Assembly (NCBI GenBank): GCA_030599585.1
Contig: JAUVNS010000011.1
Location: forward strand, 96,001 to 160,000
Reading direction: 5' to 3'
Length of the DNA: 64,000 nt
From: Promethearchaeota archaeon
GTDB lineage: Archaea; Asgardarchaeota; Lokiarchaeia; Sigyniarchaeales; SOKP01
Shown here: in pieces, positions 49,647 to 57,388 of the stretch
Layout: every line of letters starts with the position of its first letter
How positions within the stretch are numbered: position 1 is the first letter of the stretch
Made by a program: the position numbers and the translations under genes
Notes under the pieces: generated by a model
The model's database searches: none
Seen by the model: only the letters and a program-made list of their open reading frames with translations
Told to the model about the DNA's origin: nothing

Positions 49647-50519
49647 TTAAATTGTATCTTCTCCTACTCCTAATTGTGAAATCATCATCCTCTTGAGCTC
49701 TTCTTTGTTTTTAGGTAATCCAAACATATCCGCATATTTATCGGTTGTATTTAATTCTGCTGACCTTCCTTTTTTTACCGCCGTTATTAGATCGTTGTCC
49801 AAGAGGTATTTCACATGCTCGTAAGCGCCACTCCCTCTTAATTTAATAACGGTTGATTTTAAAATTGGCTGTTTCAGAGCAATTACTGTAAGTGTTCTTA
49901 AATAGCGCTCAGCAATAGCACCACCTTTAGCGAATTTGGAAACTGTTTCTGTAAGTTCCGGTCTTAGCTGCATTTGATATTTTTCTCCAATTTGGGCTAC
50001 AATCAATGCACCTTCACGGTCCAAATAGTCAAAAGCAACTACATTTACAAGTTCTTCGACTTCTTTTTTTGGGATTTCTAATTTAGTTGATAATTCTTCT
50101 ACATCCAGAGGTCTACCAGCCGCGTAAAGAGCACCCTCTATTAAATTTCTCCGTAGAATTTTTAATTGTAATTCTAATTCTTCCTTCGTGAGTTCTTTAG
50201 GTATATGGGATTCAACTATATCCGCTCCTATAACTTCGGTCTCTCGTTTGCTTAAGCTTTCTTCTGACGGGTCAAGACTTGATAAATTTTCTTCCTCAAT
50301 ACTTAATTCTTCTTCAATAAACTCTTGGCTATCTTCTTCATCAGAATCTTGTTTAAGATAATCTTCGATGGTTTCTTTGGTCTCTAATTCGATCTCAATA
50401 TCCTCTAAATTCCTTTCTTCTTGAGTAATTTCTTCGGCATCGGTCTCATCTAAAGGTTCTTCTTCATTCGTTTCGTCTTTGAATTGATTTTCCTGTTCTT
50501 TTTCATTATTTTCGTTCAG
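49647..50519 (-). CDS. scpB: SMC-Scp subunit ScpB with a ~115-aa acidic N-terminal extension
   Basis: Frame is open 165 codons upstream of the tracked ORF, through LIEGALYAAGRPLDVEEL, to CTG at 50519 after GGTGA; C-terminal TLTVIALKQP...RG...TTDKYADMFGL. Confidence 0.88.
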   Translation of the reverse strand: MNENNEKEQENQFKDETNEEEPLDETDAEEITQEERNLEDIEIELETKETIEDYLKQDSDEEDSQEFIEEELSIEEENLSSLDPSEESLSKRETEVIGADIVESHIPKELTKEELELQLKILRRNLIEGALYAAGRPLDVEELSTKLEIPKKEVEELVNVVAFDYLDREGALIVAQIGEKYQMQLRPELTETVSKFAKGGAIAERYLRTLTVIALKQPILKSTVIKLRGSGAYEHVKYLLDNDLITAVKKGRSAELNTTDKYADMFGLPKNKEELKRMMISQLGVGEDTI

Positions 50520-50548
50520 ATTCTATCACCAAAAATTTGGATTGTAAT

Positions 50549-51553
50549 TTAACTTTTTAAATTTATTGAGAAATCTTTAAAATCTTCGTCTTGAAATAGT
50601 TCTAACTTATTCCCTGTTGAGAGGAACATTAAAGCCAAAAACATGCGAACAAAAGCGAACTTCTTACCAATGTCGCTTTTTTCTTCTATGTTAATAATTT
50701 CTGCCATGTCATAAAAGGAGGTTTCTTTATCATCGAGGTTTATTTTAGTTTTTATTCTGTTAAACCAAGCGTTGTGTAACTCTTCCACAGTTTGCTCCTT
50801 CCCGCTAATGTGTTTCAAAAGTTCTTTTGGTAGTTGTGCTTTAGATTTTTTTTGAATTCGCTGTTCCTTTAATTCATCCCGCCTCATCCTTCGCCTTTTT
50901 AGTTTTTCTTTCTTCTGCATAGTCTCAATAATAGCAGATCTCATAGCGTCAAATAATTCGTCTTTAGTGGAGATTAACATTTTAGGCTGAATAGGTTGTG
51001 GTAAAGATTTGGGTATTGATCTACCGTGCCTTGCTCTAAATTGCGCCAATTCCTCCTTTTTTTGAATTTGTTCTTCGTCCCGTATTATGCTAGAGATTTT
51101 GTAATGATGTAATACTGCTGAAGTTTTAAGCGCGATTCCTGAAATTTTATAATTAATTAAATCTTCATGAAGCATGTTATTGAAGAATTTGTCAACTAAT
51201 GCTGCCAGATCGTAAAATGCAACATTTGATTCCTTAGCAACTTCGGGGTCTAGAAGGCTTGAAAAAGGTGGTTTATGCCAGAACTTTAACTCTAACTTTT
51301 CTTTATACAATAAAGCGGGGTCTTCTTCCTCGCCGGCGACTAACTCTTCTTCCAACACTTCTACATCCACGTTATCTTGAGTTCGATCTACAAATTCTGG
51401 ATGTGAAGCGATCTTTTCTATGAATTTAATAATTTCATTCTTTTTTGATTTAGACGGTATTTTTATGTTGTTTTTACTTGCAAATTCCCTTAATTTCTTT
51501 ACAGACCATTCACTGAAGTTGTATTTTATCTCTTCACTTTCATTTTCTGGAAC
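50549..51553 (-). CDS. scpA: Kleisin ScpA with N-terminal HeH/LEM-like module
   Basis: DLAALVDKF...ISGIALKTSAVL..K N-domain and FLALMFL...LELFQDEDF C-terminal wH; frame open 61 codons upstream of 51370 behind an AGGTG RBS. Exact start (GTT/ATC/ATA at 51553-51559) is uncertain. Confidence 0.82.
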   Translation of the reverse strand, partial: VPENESEEIKYNFSEWSVKKLREFASKNNIKIPSKSKKNEIIKFIEKIASHPEFVDRTQDNVDVEVLEEELVAGEEEDPALLYKEKLELKFWHKPPFSSLLDPEVAKESNVAFYDLAALVDKFFNNMLHEDLINYKISGIALKTSAVLHHYKISSIIRDEEQIQKKEELAQFRARHGRSIPKSLPQPIQPKMLISTKDELFDAMRSAIIETMQKKEKLKRRRMRRDELKEQRIQKKSKAQLPKELLKHISGKEQTVEELHNAWFNRIKTKINLDDKETSFYDMAEIINIEEKSDIGKKFAFVRMFLALMFLSTGNKLELFQDEDFKDFSINLKS

Positions 51554-51579
51554 GATTATACACCTGAAGCTTATAATTT

Positions 51580-54500
51580 TTAATTTTCTTCAATAGTAGG
51601 GGGTACATCCGGAAGTTCGAGTAACCTTTTTGCTTCTTCTTCTAAATCGACACTAAAAATGTCGGTGATACCGCTTTGTTGCATGGAGACACCGTATATG
51701 CGATCTGCGTTAACTATATTCTCTTCACGATGACTTATTACCAAAAATTGCGCTTGTCTGGCAAATTCTTTGATTACTACACTTACTCTATGAACATTGG
51801 GCCCATCTAATGCTGCATCTATCTCATCCATAATATAAAATGGCGCAGGATAAAATTCCTGAACAGCAAAAATAAATGACAAAGCAACGAGTGTTTTTTC
51901 TCCTCCGCTCAGTATTTCTAAACTGGAGATACGCTTCCCACGAGGTCTAGCTTCTATGCTACATCCACCTTCAAAAGGTTTATCTGGTCTGTCGAGAATC
52001 ATTTTTGCAGATCCCCCCGGTGAAAGCTTCTGAAATATGCGAGCAAACTCACGATTAATTTCGTGGTAAGCCTTCATGAATGTTCGAGTTTTTTCCAATT
52101 CGATTTTTTCAATAGCGTCGAGAATTGCTTTTCGTTCACGTTGTATTGTTTGCCTTCTCATATCTATTTCGTCAAATCTTTCTTTTACAGTATCATATTG
52201 CGTAATAGCTTTTAAGTTAACTGGTTCCAAAGCTTTTTTCTTGTTAGTAGCTGTAGAAATATCTGATTGTAACCCGGATTCTGAAAGCTCGTCAGTCACT
52301 ACCGGCAATGCGCCGTAATCCTTCGATCTCTGGTAAAGAGTTTCTATTTGATCTGTAGTAATAATCTTTTTTGATTCAAAATTGTTTAGTTTTGAATTTT
52401 GCATAGAAATATCAGAGCGTAGGTCGTTTATTACTTTCTGATAATTTTTTTGTTTTTGCCAGGATATATCTTTTCCTTGAATCTGTTTATTAATTTCTTC
52501 CTGTTTTACGTTCTTTTTGTCTTCTTCTTGTTTTAATTCAGTTTCAATGTTTTCAATGTCTTTTACTATTAATTCTATTTGTTTCTCAGTTTCTTTAATG
52601 TCTTGGTTAAGAGATATTATTTTTTGTTCTCGTTCTTTATTTTTATTTAATTCGTTTAATTTTGCTTGTATTTTTTGAAGATCTTTATTGAATTTATTTA
52701 ATTCTTTTTGAACTTTCTTTTGAGCTTCCAACTCTTTGTTTTTATCTTCTCTTAAAGCATCTATGACTAATTGAATTTCAGTGACTTTCTTTTGTACCTC
52801 ATCTACTTGAGTATTAAAACCCTCAACATCTAGAGTACAAGTTTTAATATTTGCTTTAGCTTCCAAGTTTTCCTTAGCTAGTTCTTCAATTGAATTGATA
52901 ACCATCATAACATTTTCAAGTGCTCTTAGGTTATCCATTGTACTTTCTAATTTTTTATTCTGATCACCAATGTGTGCCCTTAACTTTTCGGTATTCTCCC
53001 AAAACTTATTTTTTTCTAAAATATTAGAATCGATTTTTAATGTTAAAGCTTCTTGTTCTAAATTGAGATTTTTAATGTTTTCTTCAGTGTTTATTATGGT
53101 ATTTTTCTTATTTTCTATATTTGAATTTAATTCTTGGACATTTTTCTCAATATCAATAATCTTTTCATAAAAATTTTGTATTCCTTGCAATTCTTGAAGT
53201 CTTTTTTGCAGATCGTCTAATCCTTGTTGCTTTACTTCTATATTTTTCTTGATGGTAGAAACTTTATCCCAGTAATCCTCTTTGAGTTGTTTTAAATTGT
53301 TTATTTCTTCATTGAAATTTTCTTTTTGTTTTTCTCTTATTACATTATTCCTCTGTTTAACCTCAGCATCAGATTTTTCGATTTTTTCAAGTAATTCAGT
53401 GATTCTTTTATTAACTTTTTCTAACCTCTTATTAGTAACTGATAAATCGTCAGAATCATGTTTTTCTTGAGTATTTATCCGGGTTAAATCTTTCTCAATT
53501 TTGTTTAGATCTACATTTTGAGATGCAATATTTTCAGTAATCTCTTCAAGCTGTTTATACTGCTCTTGGGATTTTGACATGGTGAGTTTTCGCAATGATA
53601 AGTATACATTCTCAAGAATTTCCATTAAATCTTGCACAAAGCTATCAAATGTTGATGTAGATTGTTGAATCTCTACATCAGCAGTTTCCTTTACAGAATC
53701 AATTAACTGATCTATCGTGGTATCAACATTTTCAGTAAAAAGAGTTAATGTCTGAAGTATAGACTTGAGAGTTTCAGACACTTCAGCATCCTCTGGTTTC
53801 TGTTCTGCTTCTGCTTCAGCTTCAGAGCTTACGTCTTCAATCGTCGTCATAATATCAATAATGTCAAGGACAAATTGTTTAAAGTTGACCGCTGATGTAT
53901 CAATTGCCTCAGCGTTAGACTGTTGAATGTTACTCTTGATAGATTCAACGGATATATTGATATTCTGAGTTAGCATGTTCAGTATTTGGAGGATTCCGGT
54001 TATATCTTCAGTATTTCTTTCGTATTCTTTTTCTGTATTTTCTATTTTAGCTAACAAATTATTTTTCTCAGTGGTTAGCTCTCCTAACCGTCTTTGAATA
54101 TTATCTTTTTTTTTATTAAGCCCTTCTGATTCAGAGCTAATTTTAGTTAAATTTGCGTTCAGAGTTGACGATTTTAATTCTAAATCTTGTTTTTCTCTCT
54201 CAAGATTTGTCAATTCTTTTTTTAATAGATTTGACCTCGTATTAATATTATCAATTTTAGTTTTGTTATCATTAATTTCTGATTCAATAGAATCTTGTTT
54301 CATTAACAATAATTCTAAATCTTGTTCATTTTTTCTATAAATAGAATCTTCATCTTTTAATTGTTGTCGATAACTGTTTAATTCGTTAGTTAGCGTGTCT
54401 TTTTCCTTTAAAAGCTCTTTTAATGCCTCTTCTGTGTCTTTCCCTTTACTTAATTCTTTGATTTTTTCTTCAGTTTTAATTTTATCTGAGTTCAATGTCT

Positions 54501-56049
54501 CTATCCTATCGGTGTTCATCTTAATCTCTGTAGTTAGTGACGATAACATAGATTTAAAATCTGTTGCCTTTGAATTAAGTTTGTTCTTATCTTCTTGTAG
54601 GGTTATAATAATTTTCTCTAGATCTTGTTGATTTTCGTTCTCTTTTGAGATTTTTATATTCAAGTCATTAATTTCTTTTCTTGTGGCTTCAGCTTCATTT
54701 TTTGTGTTGGCTATCGCATCTTCAATGCTTTCTGATTCTCCTTTTAATTTGCTAAGATCTAGTTCTAATTTCTGTTTTTTTCCTTCGTTTTTTTTAATAT
54801 TTTCTTTCAGAATTTTAATTTGAGCTTTATTCGATGAAATATTTTGCTTTATAATGGAGATTTCTCCATTAAATCCTGTTTTTACATCGCTTTGATCTTT
54901 AATTTTTGCATCAATATCAGCTTGTTTTTGATGTTTACTTTCTATTTCTGCTTTTGCTGCTTCAATCTGGCTCTCTGTATCTGCTACAACCTTCCTTTCT
55001 GATTCAATTAAAGAATCAAATGTTTGATCTTCATCAAGAACCATCTGTAATTTTTCCAATGTATTAATTTCTTGAGAAATTTTTTCAACTGACTTATTTG
55101 CGAGGGTTAAAGATGTTTGATTTGAAGATTGTTGTGTTTTAAGATGAGTAATTTTTTCAGTGATTATTTCCCTTTCTTTTTCTTTTTCAGTTATGGTTTT
55201 TTGAATATTTTCCATAACCAATGATTCTTGTTTTATAATGTCATCCTGTCTTGTTAATTTTTCTTTTAACTCTTCTAAAATTGTATTAGATTCTTCAATA
55301 CTTTTTTCTAGATCATTTTCTTCCTTCCTTAATTTCTCAATCTTTAATGCTATCAATTGAGCGTTGTATAAGTCGATTTGTTCATCTAACTCTTTCCATG
55401 CCAAAGCATCATTCTTTTCCTTTTCTACTTTCTTTAATTGAGAAGAAACTTCTTTGAAAATTGCTTCAAATTGGCCTAGATCTCTTTCAGCCTTCTCTAA
55501 TTCCTTCATAGTTCCATCTTTCATCTCATCGTATTTCTGTAGGCCAATAAGTTCTTCTATAAATATTCTACGGGCTACCGGGTTCATGTGAGTTAATTCT
55601 ACTATTTTCCCTTGCAGAACGAATTGATTGCTTCCATCAGGATCTACATTTGCTGCTGCAAGAGCATTAAGAATTTGAGTTCTAGTGGATTTTTTACCGT
55701 TCATCTTATAACCTCCACCCCCACCTCGTTGAATTGTTCGAGTAACTTCAAATGTTTCTGTTCCACCTGGAAAGATTTCCTCTGAGTTATCGAAATATAA
55801 TGTAACCGAAGCTCTATTTGAAGGGTTTTTTCCTCGGGATCCGGCAAAAATCAAATCTTCAAGGCTCTTAGCTCTCATAGTTTTTTTGCTTAGCCTACCT
55901 AGAGCAAACGTTAAAGCGTCAATAATATTAGATTTTCCTGCACCATTTGGGCCTACTATACATGTAAAACCACTCGAAAGTCTAAGAGTAACAGTTCTGT
56001 CACCAAATGATTTAAATCCGGTCATAGAAATTTTTTTGATGTAAGTCAA
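51580..56049 (-). CDS. smc: SMC ATPase with elongated arms and a non-canonical central domain
   Basis: GPNGAGKS, FVLQG, LSGGEK, IMDEIDAALD, SH loop; directly upstream of scpA and scpB. Confidence 0.93.
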   Translation of the reverse strand: MTYIKKISMTGFKSFGDRTVTLRLSSGFTCIVGPNGAGKSNIIDALTFALGRLSKKTMRAKSLEDLIFAGSRGKNPSNRASVTLYFDNSEEIFPGGTETFEVTRTIQRGGGGGYKMNGKKSTRTQILNALAAANVDPDGSNQFVLQGKIVELTHMNPVARRIFIEELIGLQKYDEMKDGTMKELEKAERDLGQFEAIFKEVSSQLKKVEKEKNDALAWKELDEQIDLYNAQLIALKIEKLRKEENDLEKSIEESNTILEELKEKLTRQDDIIKQESLVMENIQKTITEKEKEREIITEKITHLKTQQSSNQTSLTLANKSVEKISQEINTLEKLQMVLDEDQTFDSLIESERKVVADTESQIEAAKAEIESKHQKQADIDAKIKDQSDVKTGFNGEISIIKQNISSNKAQIKILKENIKKNEGKKQKLELDLSKLKGESESIEDAIANTKNEAEATRKEINDLNIKISKENENQQDLEKIIITLQEDKNKLNSKATDFKSMLSSLTTEIKMNTDRIETLNSDKIKTEEKIKELSKGKDTEEALKELLKEKDTLTNELNSYRQQLKDEDSIYRKNEQDLELLLMKQDSIESEINDNKTKIDNINTRSNLLKKELTNLEREKQDLELKSSTLNANLTKISSESEGLNKKKDNIQRRLGELTTEKNNLLAKIENTEKEYERNTEDITGILQILNMLTQNINISVESIKSNIQQSNAEAIDTSAVNFKQFVLDIIDIMTTIEDVSSEAEAEAEQKPEDAEVSETLKSILQTLTLFTENVDTTIDQLIDSVKETADVEIQQSTSTFDSFVQDLMEILENVYLSLRKLTMSKSQEQYKQLEEITENIASQNVDLNKIEKDLTRINTQEKHDSDDLSVTNKRLEKVNKRITELLEKIEKSDAEVKQRNNVIREKQKENFNEEINNLKQLKEDYWDKVSTIKKNIEVKQQGLDDLQKRLQELQGIQNFYEKIIDIEKNVQELNSNIENKKNTIINTEENIKNLNLEQEALTLKIDSNILEKNKFWENTEKLRAHIGDQNKKLESTMDNLRALENVMMVINSIEELAKENLEAKANIKTCTLDVEGFNTQVDEVQKKVTEIQLVIDALREDKNKELEAQKKVQKELNKFNKDLQKIQAKLNELNKNKEREQKIISLNQDIKETEKQIELIVKDIENIETELKQEEDKKNVKQEEINKQIQGKDISWQKQKNYQKVINDLRSDISMQNSKLNNFESKKIITTDQIETLYQRSKDYGALPVVTDELSESGLQSDISTATNKKKALEPVNLKAITQYDTVKERFDEIDMRRQTIQRERKAILDAIEKIELEKTRTFMKAYHEINREFARIFQKLSPGGSAKMILDRPDKPFEGGCSIEARPRGKRISSLEILSGGEKTLVALSFIFAVQEFYPAPFYIMDEIDAALDGPNVHRVSVVIKEFARQAQFLVISHREENIVNADRIYGVSMQQSGITDIFSVDLEEEAKRLLELPDVPPTIEEN

Positions 56050-56203: not shown

Positions 56204-57388
56204 TTAGTGTTTGGTGAAGATAGCATCCATGATAGGTTTTAGTTGCTTTGGGTTTATGACCATAAAGTAATTATCATAGTTCAAGACGTTGTCGTTAAAG
56301 TAACGAAAATTATTTACATTATTTTTTTTTGAAGCATTTAATATCCCTATATTGCGCAAATTAACGATTAAATGTTTAAATTCCTCTATATTCTTTTCAT
56401 AATCTATTGATTCACAAGTTACATAGTACAGTTCTCTTAATTCCTGGATAGTTATATAAAGATTTGCTTTTTTTAGAAAATAATTAGACAAATTATCCAG
56501 AAAAATTAAATTTAACAGATCTGACTCTGAGATATAGCTTACCATACTGAATTCATCTGTAATTTGAAGGGTGTCAAATTGATTTTGAAGAATATCATAA
56601 ATCTCGAACTTTTTCAAAGTAATTTTTTGATTTAAAACAGGATAAAGCTCTCTTAAAATTTCGATACCTTTTCCGGGAACAGGTACATGGTGCTCGAAAA
56701 TTAAATCAGTAATTAAATCTATTAACTCGTTATCTATCTCATTTTTGAAAGCCAATGAAATTCTTTGCTTTATAATGTCGTTAAGCTCGGAGAATGAAAA
56801 ATAATCTAACTTCTTCTTAAAGTCAAATTCACTCATAATTTCTAGGATAGACGATCTTAAAACTTGATTACCCGTAGATATTACATTAATTTTGTTTTCT
56901 TTGCCGTATTTTAAAAATTTTTTAAAAGCCTCTGGTTGTATGTGTTCAATGTTATTAAACACTATGGTGATATTATGGTCTACTTTTCTACATACAAGCT
57001 TAAATAAGTTCCATAAATCCAAGATAGATGAATTTAGGAACGATTTATAATCAAAATTGATGTTCTTTCTACTTCCAACTTCAGCTATTAACGAAACTAA
57101 AATCTCTTCCACACTTTTTTCTGAACAATCAATTTGGATTTTTATAAGTTCAGGATTTAAAGTAGATATGTCGTTCAAGACCGAATTTACAATGACCTTT
57201 TTCCCTATACCTTGGATTCCTTGAAATAATATATTCAGTTGAAATTCATCATGTAATGAATCTTTAAGAATTGAATAGAGCGCTTTTTCTTCCGTTTTCC
57301 GATGTAATATTTTAGGAGGAATGTAGGTCTGATCAAATAACGCTCTTGGACCTACAAATTCGTTATTTATCCTTTGTGCAGAAATCAT
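56204..57388 (-). CDS. Orc1/Cdc6-like protein with degenerate ATPase motifs
   Basis: FDQTYIPPKILHRKTE, GIQGIGKK, IVFNNIE, YFSFSELNDIIKQR, C-terminal wH. Confidence 0.8.
   Translation of the reverse strand: MISAQRINNEFVGPRALFDQTYIPPKILHRKTEEKALYSILKDSLHDEFQLNILFQGIQGIGKKVIVNSVLNDISTLNPELIKIQIDCSEKSVEEILVSLIAEVGSRKNINFDYKSFLNSSILDLWNLFKLVCRKVDHNITIVFNNIEHIQPEAFKKFLKYGKENKINVISTGNQVLRSSILEIMSEFDFKKKLDYFSFSELNDIIKQRISLAFKNEIDNELIDLITDLIFEHHVPVPGKGIEILRELYPVLNQKITLKKFEIYDILQNQFDTLQITDEFSMVSYISESDLLNLIFLDNLSNYFLKKANLYITIQELRELYYVTCESIDYEKNIEEFKHLIVNLRNIGILNASKKNNVNNFRYFNDNVLNYDNYFMVINPKQLKPIMDAIFTKH

Follow-up and report, generated by a model that had tools for sequence, protein, structure and literature searches.

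A long-armed, hinge-less SMC protein with a duplicated helical apex module in a Lokiarchaeia Smc-kleisin-kite operon

The window is a 64,000-nucleotide stretch of a Promethearchaeota genome (contig JAUVNS010000011.1, here C11; forward-strand positions 96,001 to 160,000) and contains, on its minus strand, a gene for a long protein of the SMC (structural maintenance of chromosomes) type. The gene (51580..56049) has a TTG start and 1489 codons, as read from the open reading frame (ORF) and its translation. The long SMC has complete ATPase heads, and genes for a kleisin and a kite protein follow it. Its coiled-coil arms end in neither a hinge nor a zinc hook; the tip is a predicted helical hairpin that consists of two copies of a 59-residue helix. 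The explanation that best accounts for the observations as a whole, and that is considered reasonably probable, is a paralogous Smc-kleisin-kite complex of Lokiarchaeia with a helical dimerizing apex. All window coordinates below refer to the minus strand.

Absence of a hinge and duplication of the apex helix

The heads are intact, as the initial annotation had stated, and all five ATPase motifs (Walker A, Q-loop, signature, Walker B and H-loop) can be read in the translation. The N-terminal half (residues 1-170; 55540..56049) carries the Walker A motif GPNGAGKS and the Q-loop, and the C-terminal half (residues 1321-1489; 51580..52089) carries the signature LSGGEKT, the Walker B motif MDEIDAALD and the H-loop SHRE. 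Pfam SMC_N matches residues 3-1462 with an E-value of 4.4e-42. The ascending arm strand (residues 171-678; 54016..55539) is 25.5% hydrophobic and 40% charged, and the part of it that was folded is a continuous helix in the AlphaFold2 model. The descending strand (residues 846-1320; 52090..53514) was delimited by AlphaFold2, composition and entropy. The ascending strand has ~510 residues, compared with ~330-345 in canonical Smc. Counted to the tip, an arm strand has ~570 residues, which by rise-per-residue arithmetic corresponds to ~85 nm, compared with ~49 nm in Bacillus Smc.

There is no Pfam match at E<=1 to SMC_hinge, Rad50_zn_hook or the MukB hinge, either in the whole protein or in residues 600-900. 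The same hinge detection did pick up two other proteins, the canonical Smc encoded by a related genome (G147) and the second SMC in the window's genome. When the apex profile was aligned to a profile of 115 canonical archaeal Smc hinges, hhalign returned a probability of 0.2% (E 0.24). Searches of the PDB with the apex sequence and the apex profile gave coiled-coil noise only. The protein contains three Cys residues (30, 1071 and 1363), no CxxC anywhere and no motif resembling G-x6-G-x3-GG. Only three Gly occur in residues 560-900, and Pro752 is the sole Pro between residues 171 and 1249.

The structure predictions point the same way. AlphaFold2 folded residues 540-980 (50-row alignment) into one all-helical hairpin with zero strands, a turn at 746-752 and a pLDDT of 84.5. 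Residues 668-848, folded separately from 34 rows that included relatives of 22-38% identity, again gave a two-helix hairpin without strands (turn 749-751, pLDDT 75.6). Foldseek searches with both models returned hairpins of Rad50, chemoreceptors, Smc5/6 arms and Bacillus Smc arms, and no hinge. Look-alikes of the apex in the ESM Atlas, with best scores of 0.90 to unnamed clusters, were uninformative. The initial annotation had described an SMC without a canonical hinge or zinc hook and expected no HMM match to either; this description holds, since neither an SMC_hinge or MukB-hinge match nor a predicted hinge fold appeared in Pfam, AlphaFold2 or Foldseek.

The best NCBIfam match of the long SMC is SMC_prok_A. 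It scores 590.1 bits against TIGR02169, under the cut-off of 729.4, in four stretches, and 566.8 bits against TIGR02168, where the cut-off is 567.35 (4-5 stretches for the two models). The canonical Smc of G147, used as a control, scores 832 bits in one stretch. Other identities were considered and rejected. A Rad50/SbcC identity is contradicted by the lack of CxxC and of a Rad50_zn_hook match, and by Rad50 NCBIfam scores of ~80 bits against cut-offs of at least 700. A RecN identity does not fit the scores (21 bits against a cut-off of 408 for TIGR00634, 24 against 418 for NF008121) or the length (1489 aa against ~550 aa). No MukB family is among the Pfam matches at E<=1 and the partners are of ScpA/ScpB type, which does not agree with MukB, MksB or JetC. 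The archaeal SMC5/6-related proteins (Yoshinaga and Inagaki 2021) are not a match either, given the ScpB-like kite and a head that falls in the Smc radiation, far from the divergent hinge-bearing SMC, in a tree with one outgroup sequence of that type. An assembly artefact was rejected since the same architecture repeats in many independent assemblies.

The stretch singled out in the initial annotation (53560-54015) encodes residues 679-830, where amphipathic helices were described as lying roughly symmetrically around an acidic loop. The symmetry proved to be a genuine tandem duplication. Residues 679-737 (copy 1; 53839..54015) and 757-815 (copy 2; 53605..53781) align over 59 gapless columns with an hhalign probability of 98.2% and an E-value of 2.7e-14; four other arm segments, used as controls, gave E-values of 0.14-0.65. 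An HMM of the module has exactly two matches in the long SMC (83.5 bits for copy 1 and 82.6 bits for copy 2) and none elsewhere in the six-frame translation of the window's genome. Residues 679-815 are thus a tandem direct duplication of a 59-residue helix. The variable acidic loop between the copies (residues 738-756; 53782..53838; net charge -5) contains the hairpin turn and Pro752, and its length varies, with indels concentrated there. The helix right after copy 2 (residues 816-845; 53515..53604; entropy 0.66) bears the LSLRKLTMSKSQ motif and is almost invariant in the alignment of the window's family (f1).

In the AlphaFold2 model, copy 1 on the ascending strand packs antiparallel to copy 2 on the descending strand at the end of one continuous coiled-coil hairpin; therefore, the apex is predicted to have a pseudo-two-fold axis. 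The amphipathic helices are real as sequence features, but they are predicted to form two long helices rather than a four-helix domain. A monomer fold with four helices around the loop was rejected, since residues 668-848 stayed a two-helix hairpin when folded alone.

The modules differ from the arms in composition. They are 37-39% hydrophobic and 15-24% charged (39% and 15% in copy 1), compared with 25-28% and 38-40% in the arms. A doubled hydrophobic heptad pattern (#..##.##.##) has a mean occupancy of 0.37-0.43 in the modules, compared with 0.17-0.30 in most arm windows, and the hydrophobic stripe is widened along both module helices. Copy 2 has a net charge of -8.7. The whole apex has a net charge of ~-18 (range -24 to -13), while a rough hinge core of canonical Smcs has a mean of ~+5. 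Column entropy, computed over 96 family members, is 0.53 in copy 1 and 0.81 in copy 2, with 0.37 in residues 691-720. The arms have values of 1.14 (ascending strand) to 1.26, and the heads 0.38 (N-terminal half) and 0.23 (C-terminal half). The conservation of the apex is about comparable to that of the heads. Two conserved islands, at ~680-720 and ~781-840, lie opposite each other in the predicted hairpin.

Operon partners, paralogs and distribution

Kleisin and kite genes follow smc, in agreement with the initial annotation. The ScpA-like kleisin (50549..51589; frame open to 51589, first canonical start GTG at 51370) has a weak SMC_ScpA match at its C-terminal winged helix of 17.1 bits (17-19 bits overall). 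The ortholog in G147 matches SMC_ScpA at positions 43-231 and also has a weak match to the Rad21/Rec8 C-terminus. A kleisin gene occupies the same operon position in five related genomes. The kite gene (49647..50522; open frame of 291 aa) encodes an ScpB with a long acidic N-terminal extension of ~125 residues and a PF04079 match of 115.5 bits at frame residues 127-277 (115-117 bits overall). Its orthologs have 295-350 aa, whereas the kite next to canonical Smc in G147 has 197 aa. Two genomes, G147 and G213, carry both the long SMC, together with its kleisin and ~330-aa ScpB, and a canonical Smc followed by a 197-aa ScpB-like kite; additional ScpA-like ORFs occur elsewhere in both. By gene order and domain matches, a kleisin and a long ScpB of its own accompany the long SMC in a conserved operon.

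The start sites of both partner genes are unusual. The ScpB frame has no ATG, GTG or TTG in its first 166 codons, yet the Pfam ScpB domain begins at frame residue 127, and initiation at the earliest canonical start, TTG at 50024, would truncate this domain. An in-frame CTG at 50519 is preceded, 6 nt upstream, by a GGTGA motif. From the sequence, ScpB is likely to have a non-canonical start. In the kleisin frame, the segment upstream of the GTG at 51370 (51371-51589) resembles a helix-extension-helix and has no in-frame canonical start. It has a Pfam Ish1 match (E 9.9e-5, 23 bits, cut-off 26.6) and a Rho_N match (E 0.004), and the N-terminus of the G147 ortholog fails to align to it.

The apex sequence has 169 database homologs, almost all of 1470-1490 aa, and none of them has a precomputed hinge. 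An exhaustive apex search of 1.84 billion representatives found 33, and those with a named source are Asgard except for one fragment labeled Chloroflexi. The hinge-less form occurs in 71 of the 301 sampled genomes of the phylum. Among these 301 genomes the apex is found in 60 of 68 genomes of family f1 and 7 of 7 of family f2, both of the same order, and essentially nowhere else; in a fuller sample of f2 it is present in 14 of 14 genomes. The long SMC is a single-copy gene; of 82 f1 and f2 genomes searched, 74 have it. A shorter hinge-less member of the clade, P0143, labeled Sigynarchaeota, has 1296 aa with its apex at residues 587-709. The arm strands of P0143 are ~94 and ~87 residues shorter than those of the window's SMC, near one coiled-coil superhelical period. 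A 91-aa periodicity has been reported for the arms of Bacillus Smc. A long SMC with an apex region 91% identical to that of the window was also seen on a 20.9-kb contig (L034, DATKTW010000114.1) of a metagenome-assembled genome (MAG) labeled Candidatus Nanopelagicaceae bacterium; this contig was probably mis-binned from a Lokiarchaeon.

The order also contains canonical Smc, although not in every genus. The f1 genera g4, g6, g8 and g9 and family f2 have a strong canonical hinge as well (hinge HMM E ~1e-32 to 1e-35, proteins of ~1200 aa), and the canonical Smc coexists with the long SMC in G147, G213, G303 and G306. The last two, both of f2, are taken to be Lokiarchaeum ossiferum (G303) and Prometheoarchaeum syntrophicum MK-D1 (G306), and one protein encoded in G306 shows 100% identity to the Smc recorded under the name of Prometheoarchaeum syntrophicum. 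Both have the operon of the long SMC. The 57 genomes of the f1 genera g1 (the window's genus), g2, g3, g5 and g7 have one weak hinge match only. The hinge HMM detected no canonical Smc in the window's genome or genus, and tblastn of two canonical Smcs against the window's genome hit only the heads of the long SMC. In the window's genus, the long SMC complex is the only Smc-ScpAB-type complex found. The gene distribution thus indicates that the long SMC has been retained where canonical Smc was lost, in five f1 genera.

The initial annotation had raised the presence of another hinge-bearing Smc in this genome. The genome does carry a divergent one, whereas a canonical one was not found. The weak hinge match of the window's genome belongs to this divergent 1164-aa SMC on contig C40 (L010:6974-10468, minus strand; G000). 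Its hinge match is significant but weak (PF06470, 38 bits), its heads are very divergent, and two small ORFs (217 and 171 aa) without Pfam matches follow it. The C40 SMC and these two ORFs are probably an SMC5/6-related archaeal complex with kleisin and kite.

In the head-domain tree all long SMCs form one clade with a support of 100/100 and a long stem. The canonical Loki and Sigyn sequences form a separate clade, likewise with 100/100, and the branching order within the long-SMC clade mirrors that of the canonical clade. The heads of the long SMC group with Smc and not with the divergent second SMC; the backbone of the tree is open with a single outgroup on a very long branch, so that the attachment to canonical Smc is not placed. 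The long SMC is accordingly classified, from its sequence relationships, as belonging to a paralogous Smc-kleisin-kite complex confined to the order. The earlier suggestion of a distinct, possibly undescribed condensin type is borne out by the separate clade and by the literature, but it needs correction in that this is a paralogous complex and not "the" Smc with an altered tip.

The apex module also occurs outside SMC proteins. A family of non-SMC proteins of ~930-1180 aa, found only in f2, contains four copies of the module, two strong and two weak, and belongs to no Pfam family. The member in G213 (L028:5997-9122, minus strand; also P0146, P0151, P0152 and P0156) has a Lys/Thr-rich, H1-like C-terminal tail. 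The protein was absent from the searches of the window's genome and of family f1. It might bind the SMC apex as a partner, or the module might derive from it.

The window has ~31% G+C, and its contig is one of 52 in a 4.85-Mb genome with a completeness of 100% and a contamination of 8.9%. The nearest relatives are MAGs labeled Lokiarchaeota or Promethearchaeota, for example Loki_b31, Loki_b32 and ABR04. Just upstream of smc and on the same strand, the ORF at 56204-57388 has weak AAA_22 and Cdc6_C matches (E ~0.02); its product is a divergent Orc1/Cdc6-like protein.

Proposed role of the apex

The apex is proposed to be a dimerization module, by analogy and from its conservation and hydrophobic width. 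Both faces of the two helices have head-like conservation, the hydrophobic stripe is too wide for a two-helix coil, long-armed SMC-like proteins dimerize at the apex, and Bacillus Smc tolerates the replacement of its hinge by a zinc hook (PMC5344682). In the proposed mechanism the extra hydrophobic faces of two hairpin tips would come together as a four-helix bundle. Through this bundle the SMC would dimerize at its apex and the ring of SMC and kleisin would be closed, as by a hinge or the Rad50 zinc hook, and the complex would act as a chromosomal condensin or loop-extruder. Its acidity makes it improbable that the tip binds DNA in the manner of hinges. A wider proposal can be put forward only tentatively and with less confidence than the dimerizing paralog itself: the complex might be a third kind of SMC complex in Lokiarchaeia, besides the canonical and the divergent hinge-bearing ones, with a ring closed by a metal-free helical-bundle apex that arose by duplication of a single helix, and might replace the canonical condensin in a large uncultured subclade that includes the window's genome. 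In this proposal the acidic tip may instead bind to basic chromatin proteins in these relatives of eukaryotes, which have histones.

Several points weigh against a dimerizing apex in a chromosomal complex. The pLDDT of the 540-980 model falls to 47-75 in residues 690-790, so that confidence drops toward the tip and the local structure there is uncertain. The segment of highest conservation lies 25-65 residues below the tip and would also fit a docking site for another protein. The module in a separate f2 protein, in a family that includes cultured species, could mediate heterotypic contacts. The SMC dimer could in principle be held by heads and kleisin alone, and the chromosomal function of the complex is deduced from its protein family and operon.

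The main rival to apex dimerization is that the apex is a conserved docking site and that the SMC dimer forms via head engagement and kleisin only. Docking might involve the head, kleisin or ScpB region once the long arm has folded at an elbow, a basic chromatin protein drawn to the acidic tip, or, in f2, the ~1000-aa module protein. The position of the conserved islands below rather than at the tip agrees with docking, as do the conserved negative charge of the apex and the presence of the module in a non-SMC protein with an H1-like tail. Docking of the hinge to head-proximal regions is also known in cohesin, condensin and MukBEF. However, the module-bearing protein is absent from the window's genome and family, where the apex is most conserved. 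In addition, all characterized long-armed SMC-like proteins dimerize at the apex, and the widened stripe on both helices is as expected for a symmetric bundle. A docking site is considered unlikely, although it is the strongest of the alternatives.

It is less likely still that the long SMC is part not of a chromosome-organizing condensin but of an SMC-like machine that serves, for example, in cytoskeletal scaffolding, in DNA repair or in defense against plasmids or viruses. In that case the divergent hinge-bearing SMC, along with other proteins, would have to organize the chromosome in the window's lineage. The long SMC is a paralog beside canonical Smc in several genera and falls under the TIGR02169 equivalog cut-off, and archaeal SMC-like proteins with cytoskeletal roles exist, for example arcadin-4 and Sph3 (PMC10869688). 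On the other hand, the operon has kept a kleisin and a bona fide ScpB, the heads are nearest to Smc, and the gene is single-copy in most of the f1 and f2 genomes. No nuclease or defense gene is listed next to smc among the ORFs of the window or of the related loci, and five f1 genera have kept the long SMC with canonical Smc gone.

A hinge that is present but diverged past sequence-based recognition is highly improbable: the apex (~165 residues) is near hinge length (~170) and both are internally two-fold repeated, but neither AlphaFold2 run has strands, the profile-profile probability is very low, the region has only its three Gly and one Pro, and Foldseek finds coiled-coil hairpins only.

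Significance and comparison with known systems

The hinge is seen as a defining and essential part of SMC proteins: it dimerizes them constitutively, binds DNA and has been proposed to serve as a DNA gate. Which of these functions are required is put to the test by an order-wide Smc-kleisin-kite complex that naturally lacks a hinge, and its retention where canonical Smc has been lost sharpens the test. If the wider proposal is true, it would be natural proof that the hinge fold and DNA binding by the hinge are dispensable for Smc function, and that the arm length of Smc can reach ~1.6x the usual. The 59-residue module is a new, self-contained helical unit that belongs to no Pfam family and is present in a non-SMC protein as well. 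The likely presence of the complex in both cultured Lokiarchaeia opens it to biochemistry, Hi-C and cryo-ET.

The finding also bears on SMC evolution before eukaryotes. Surveys of archaeal SMC proteins describe canonical and SMC5/6-related paralogs in Asgard archaea and an SMC-kleisin-kite operon in MK-D1, and mention no hinge-less form (PMC8665677; bioRxiv 10.1101/2024.01.07.573240). One 'condensin/cohesin-related' complex is counted per Asgard genome (bioRxiv 10.1101/2024.01.07.573240), while the genomes described here hold two. Where the same study speaks of 'three SMC complexes', it means that the SMC5/6-related complex is duplicated in Hodarchaeales (bioRxiv 10.1101/2024.01.07.573240). 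No description of a hinge-less, long-armed architecture of the Smc-ScpAB type was found in the searchable literature.

The canonical Smc-ScpAB of Bacillus subtilis and Pyrococcus (TIGR02169) shares with the long SMC the ABC-ATPase heads, the antiparallel intramolecular coiled coil and the operon with kleisin and ScpB. The heads of the long SMC are 32-41% identical to those of canonical Asgard Smc. The long SMC differs in having no hinge and strands of ~570 rather than ~340 residues to the tip. Its apex is acidic, compared with ~+5 for the hinge core, its ScpB has an acidic extension, and it forms its own clade and misses the equivalog cut-off.

Rad50/SbcC has a similar long coiled-coil hairpin that ends without a globular domain, and Rad50 (7zr1) is the top Foldseek match. 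However, the long SMC has no CxxC hook, and both its heads and its partners are Smc-type. RecN and the cytoplasmic hairpin of chemotaxis receptors are alike in that the hairpins themselves dimerize or bundle, and the chemoreceptor 2ch7 is a top Foldseek match; there is no sequence relationship to the long SMC. In the chemoreceptor hairpin the most conserved sequence lies near the hairpin tip.

Published reports of a hinge-less SMC clade are confined to marine Actinomycetes (Environ Microbiome 2025, PMC12153180). This clade likewise has SMC-type heads and a coiled coil without a hinge or CxxC, and was recognized from AlphaFold models of environmental sequences. It differs in being bacterial, planktonic and independent, with no operon context given (PMC12153180), and is compared here by description only.

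The closest engineered counterpart is Smc(Zh), a Bacillus Smc in which the hinge is swapped for an unrelated small element that terminates the coiled coil, the Rad50 hook of P. furiosus (Burmann et al. 2017, PMC5344682). The long SMC differs from this chimera in being natural, in having no apex Cys or metal site and in its much longer arms, and its dimerization is putative. Cells with the hook in place of the hinge grew normally, and the dimerization domain's fold was concluded to be 'irrelevant for chromosome segregation' (PMC5344682). Since the chimera supports growth, the architecture of the long SMC is viable in principle.

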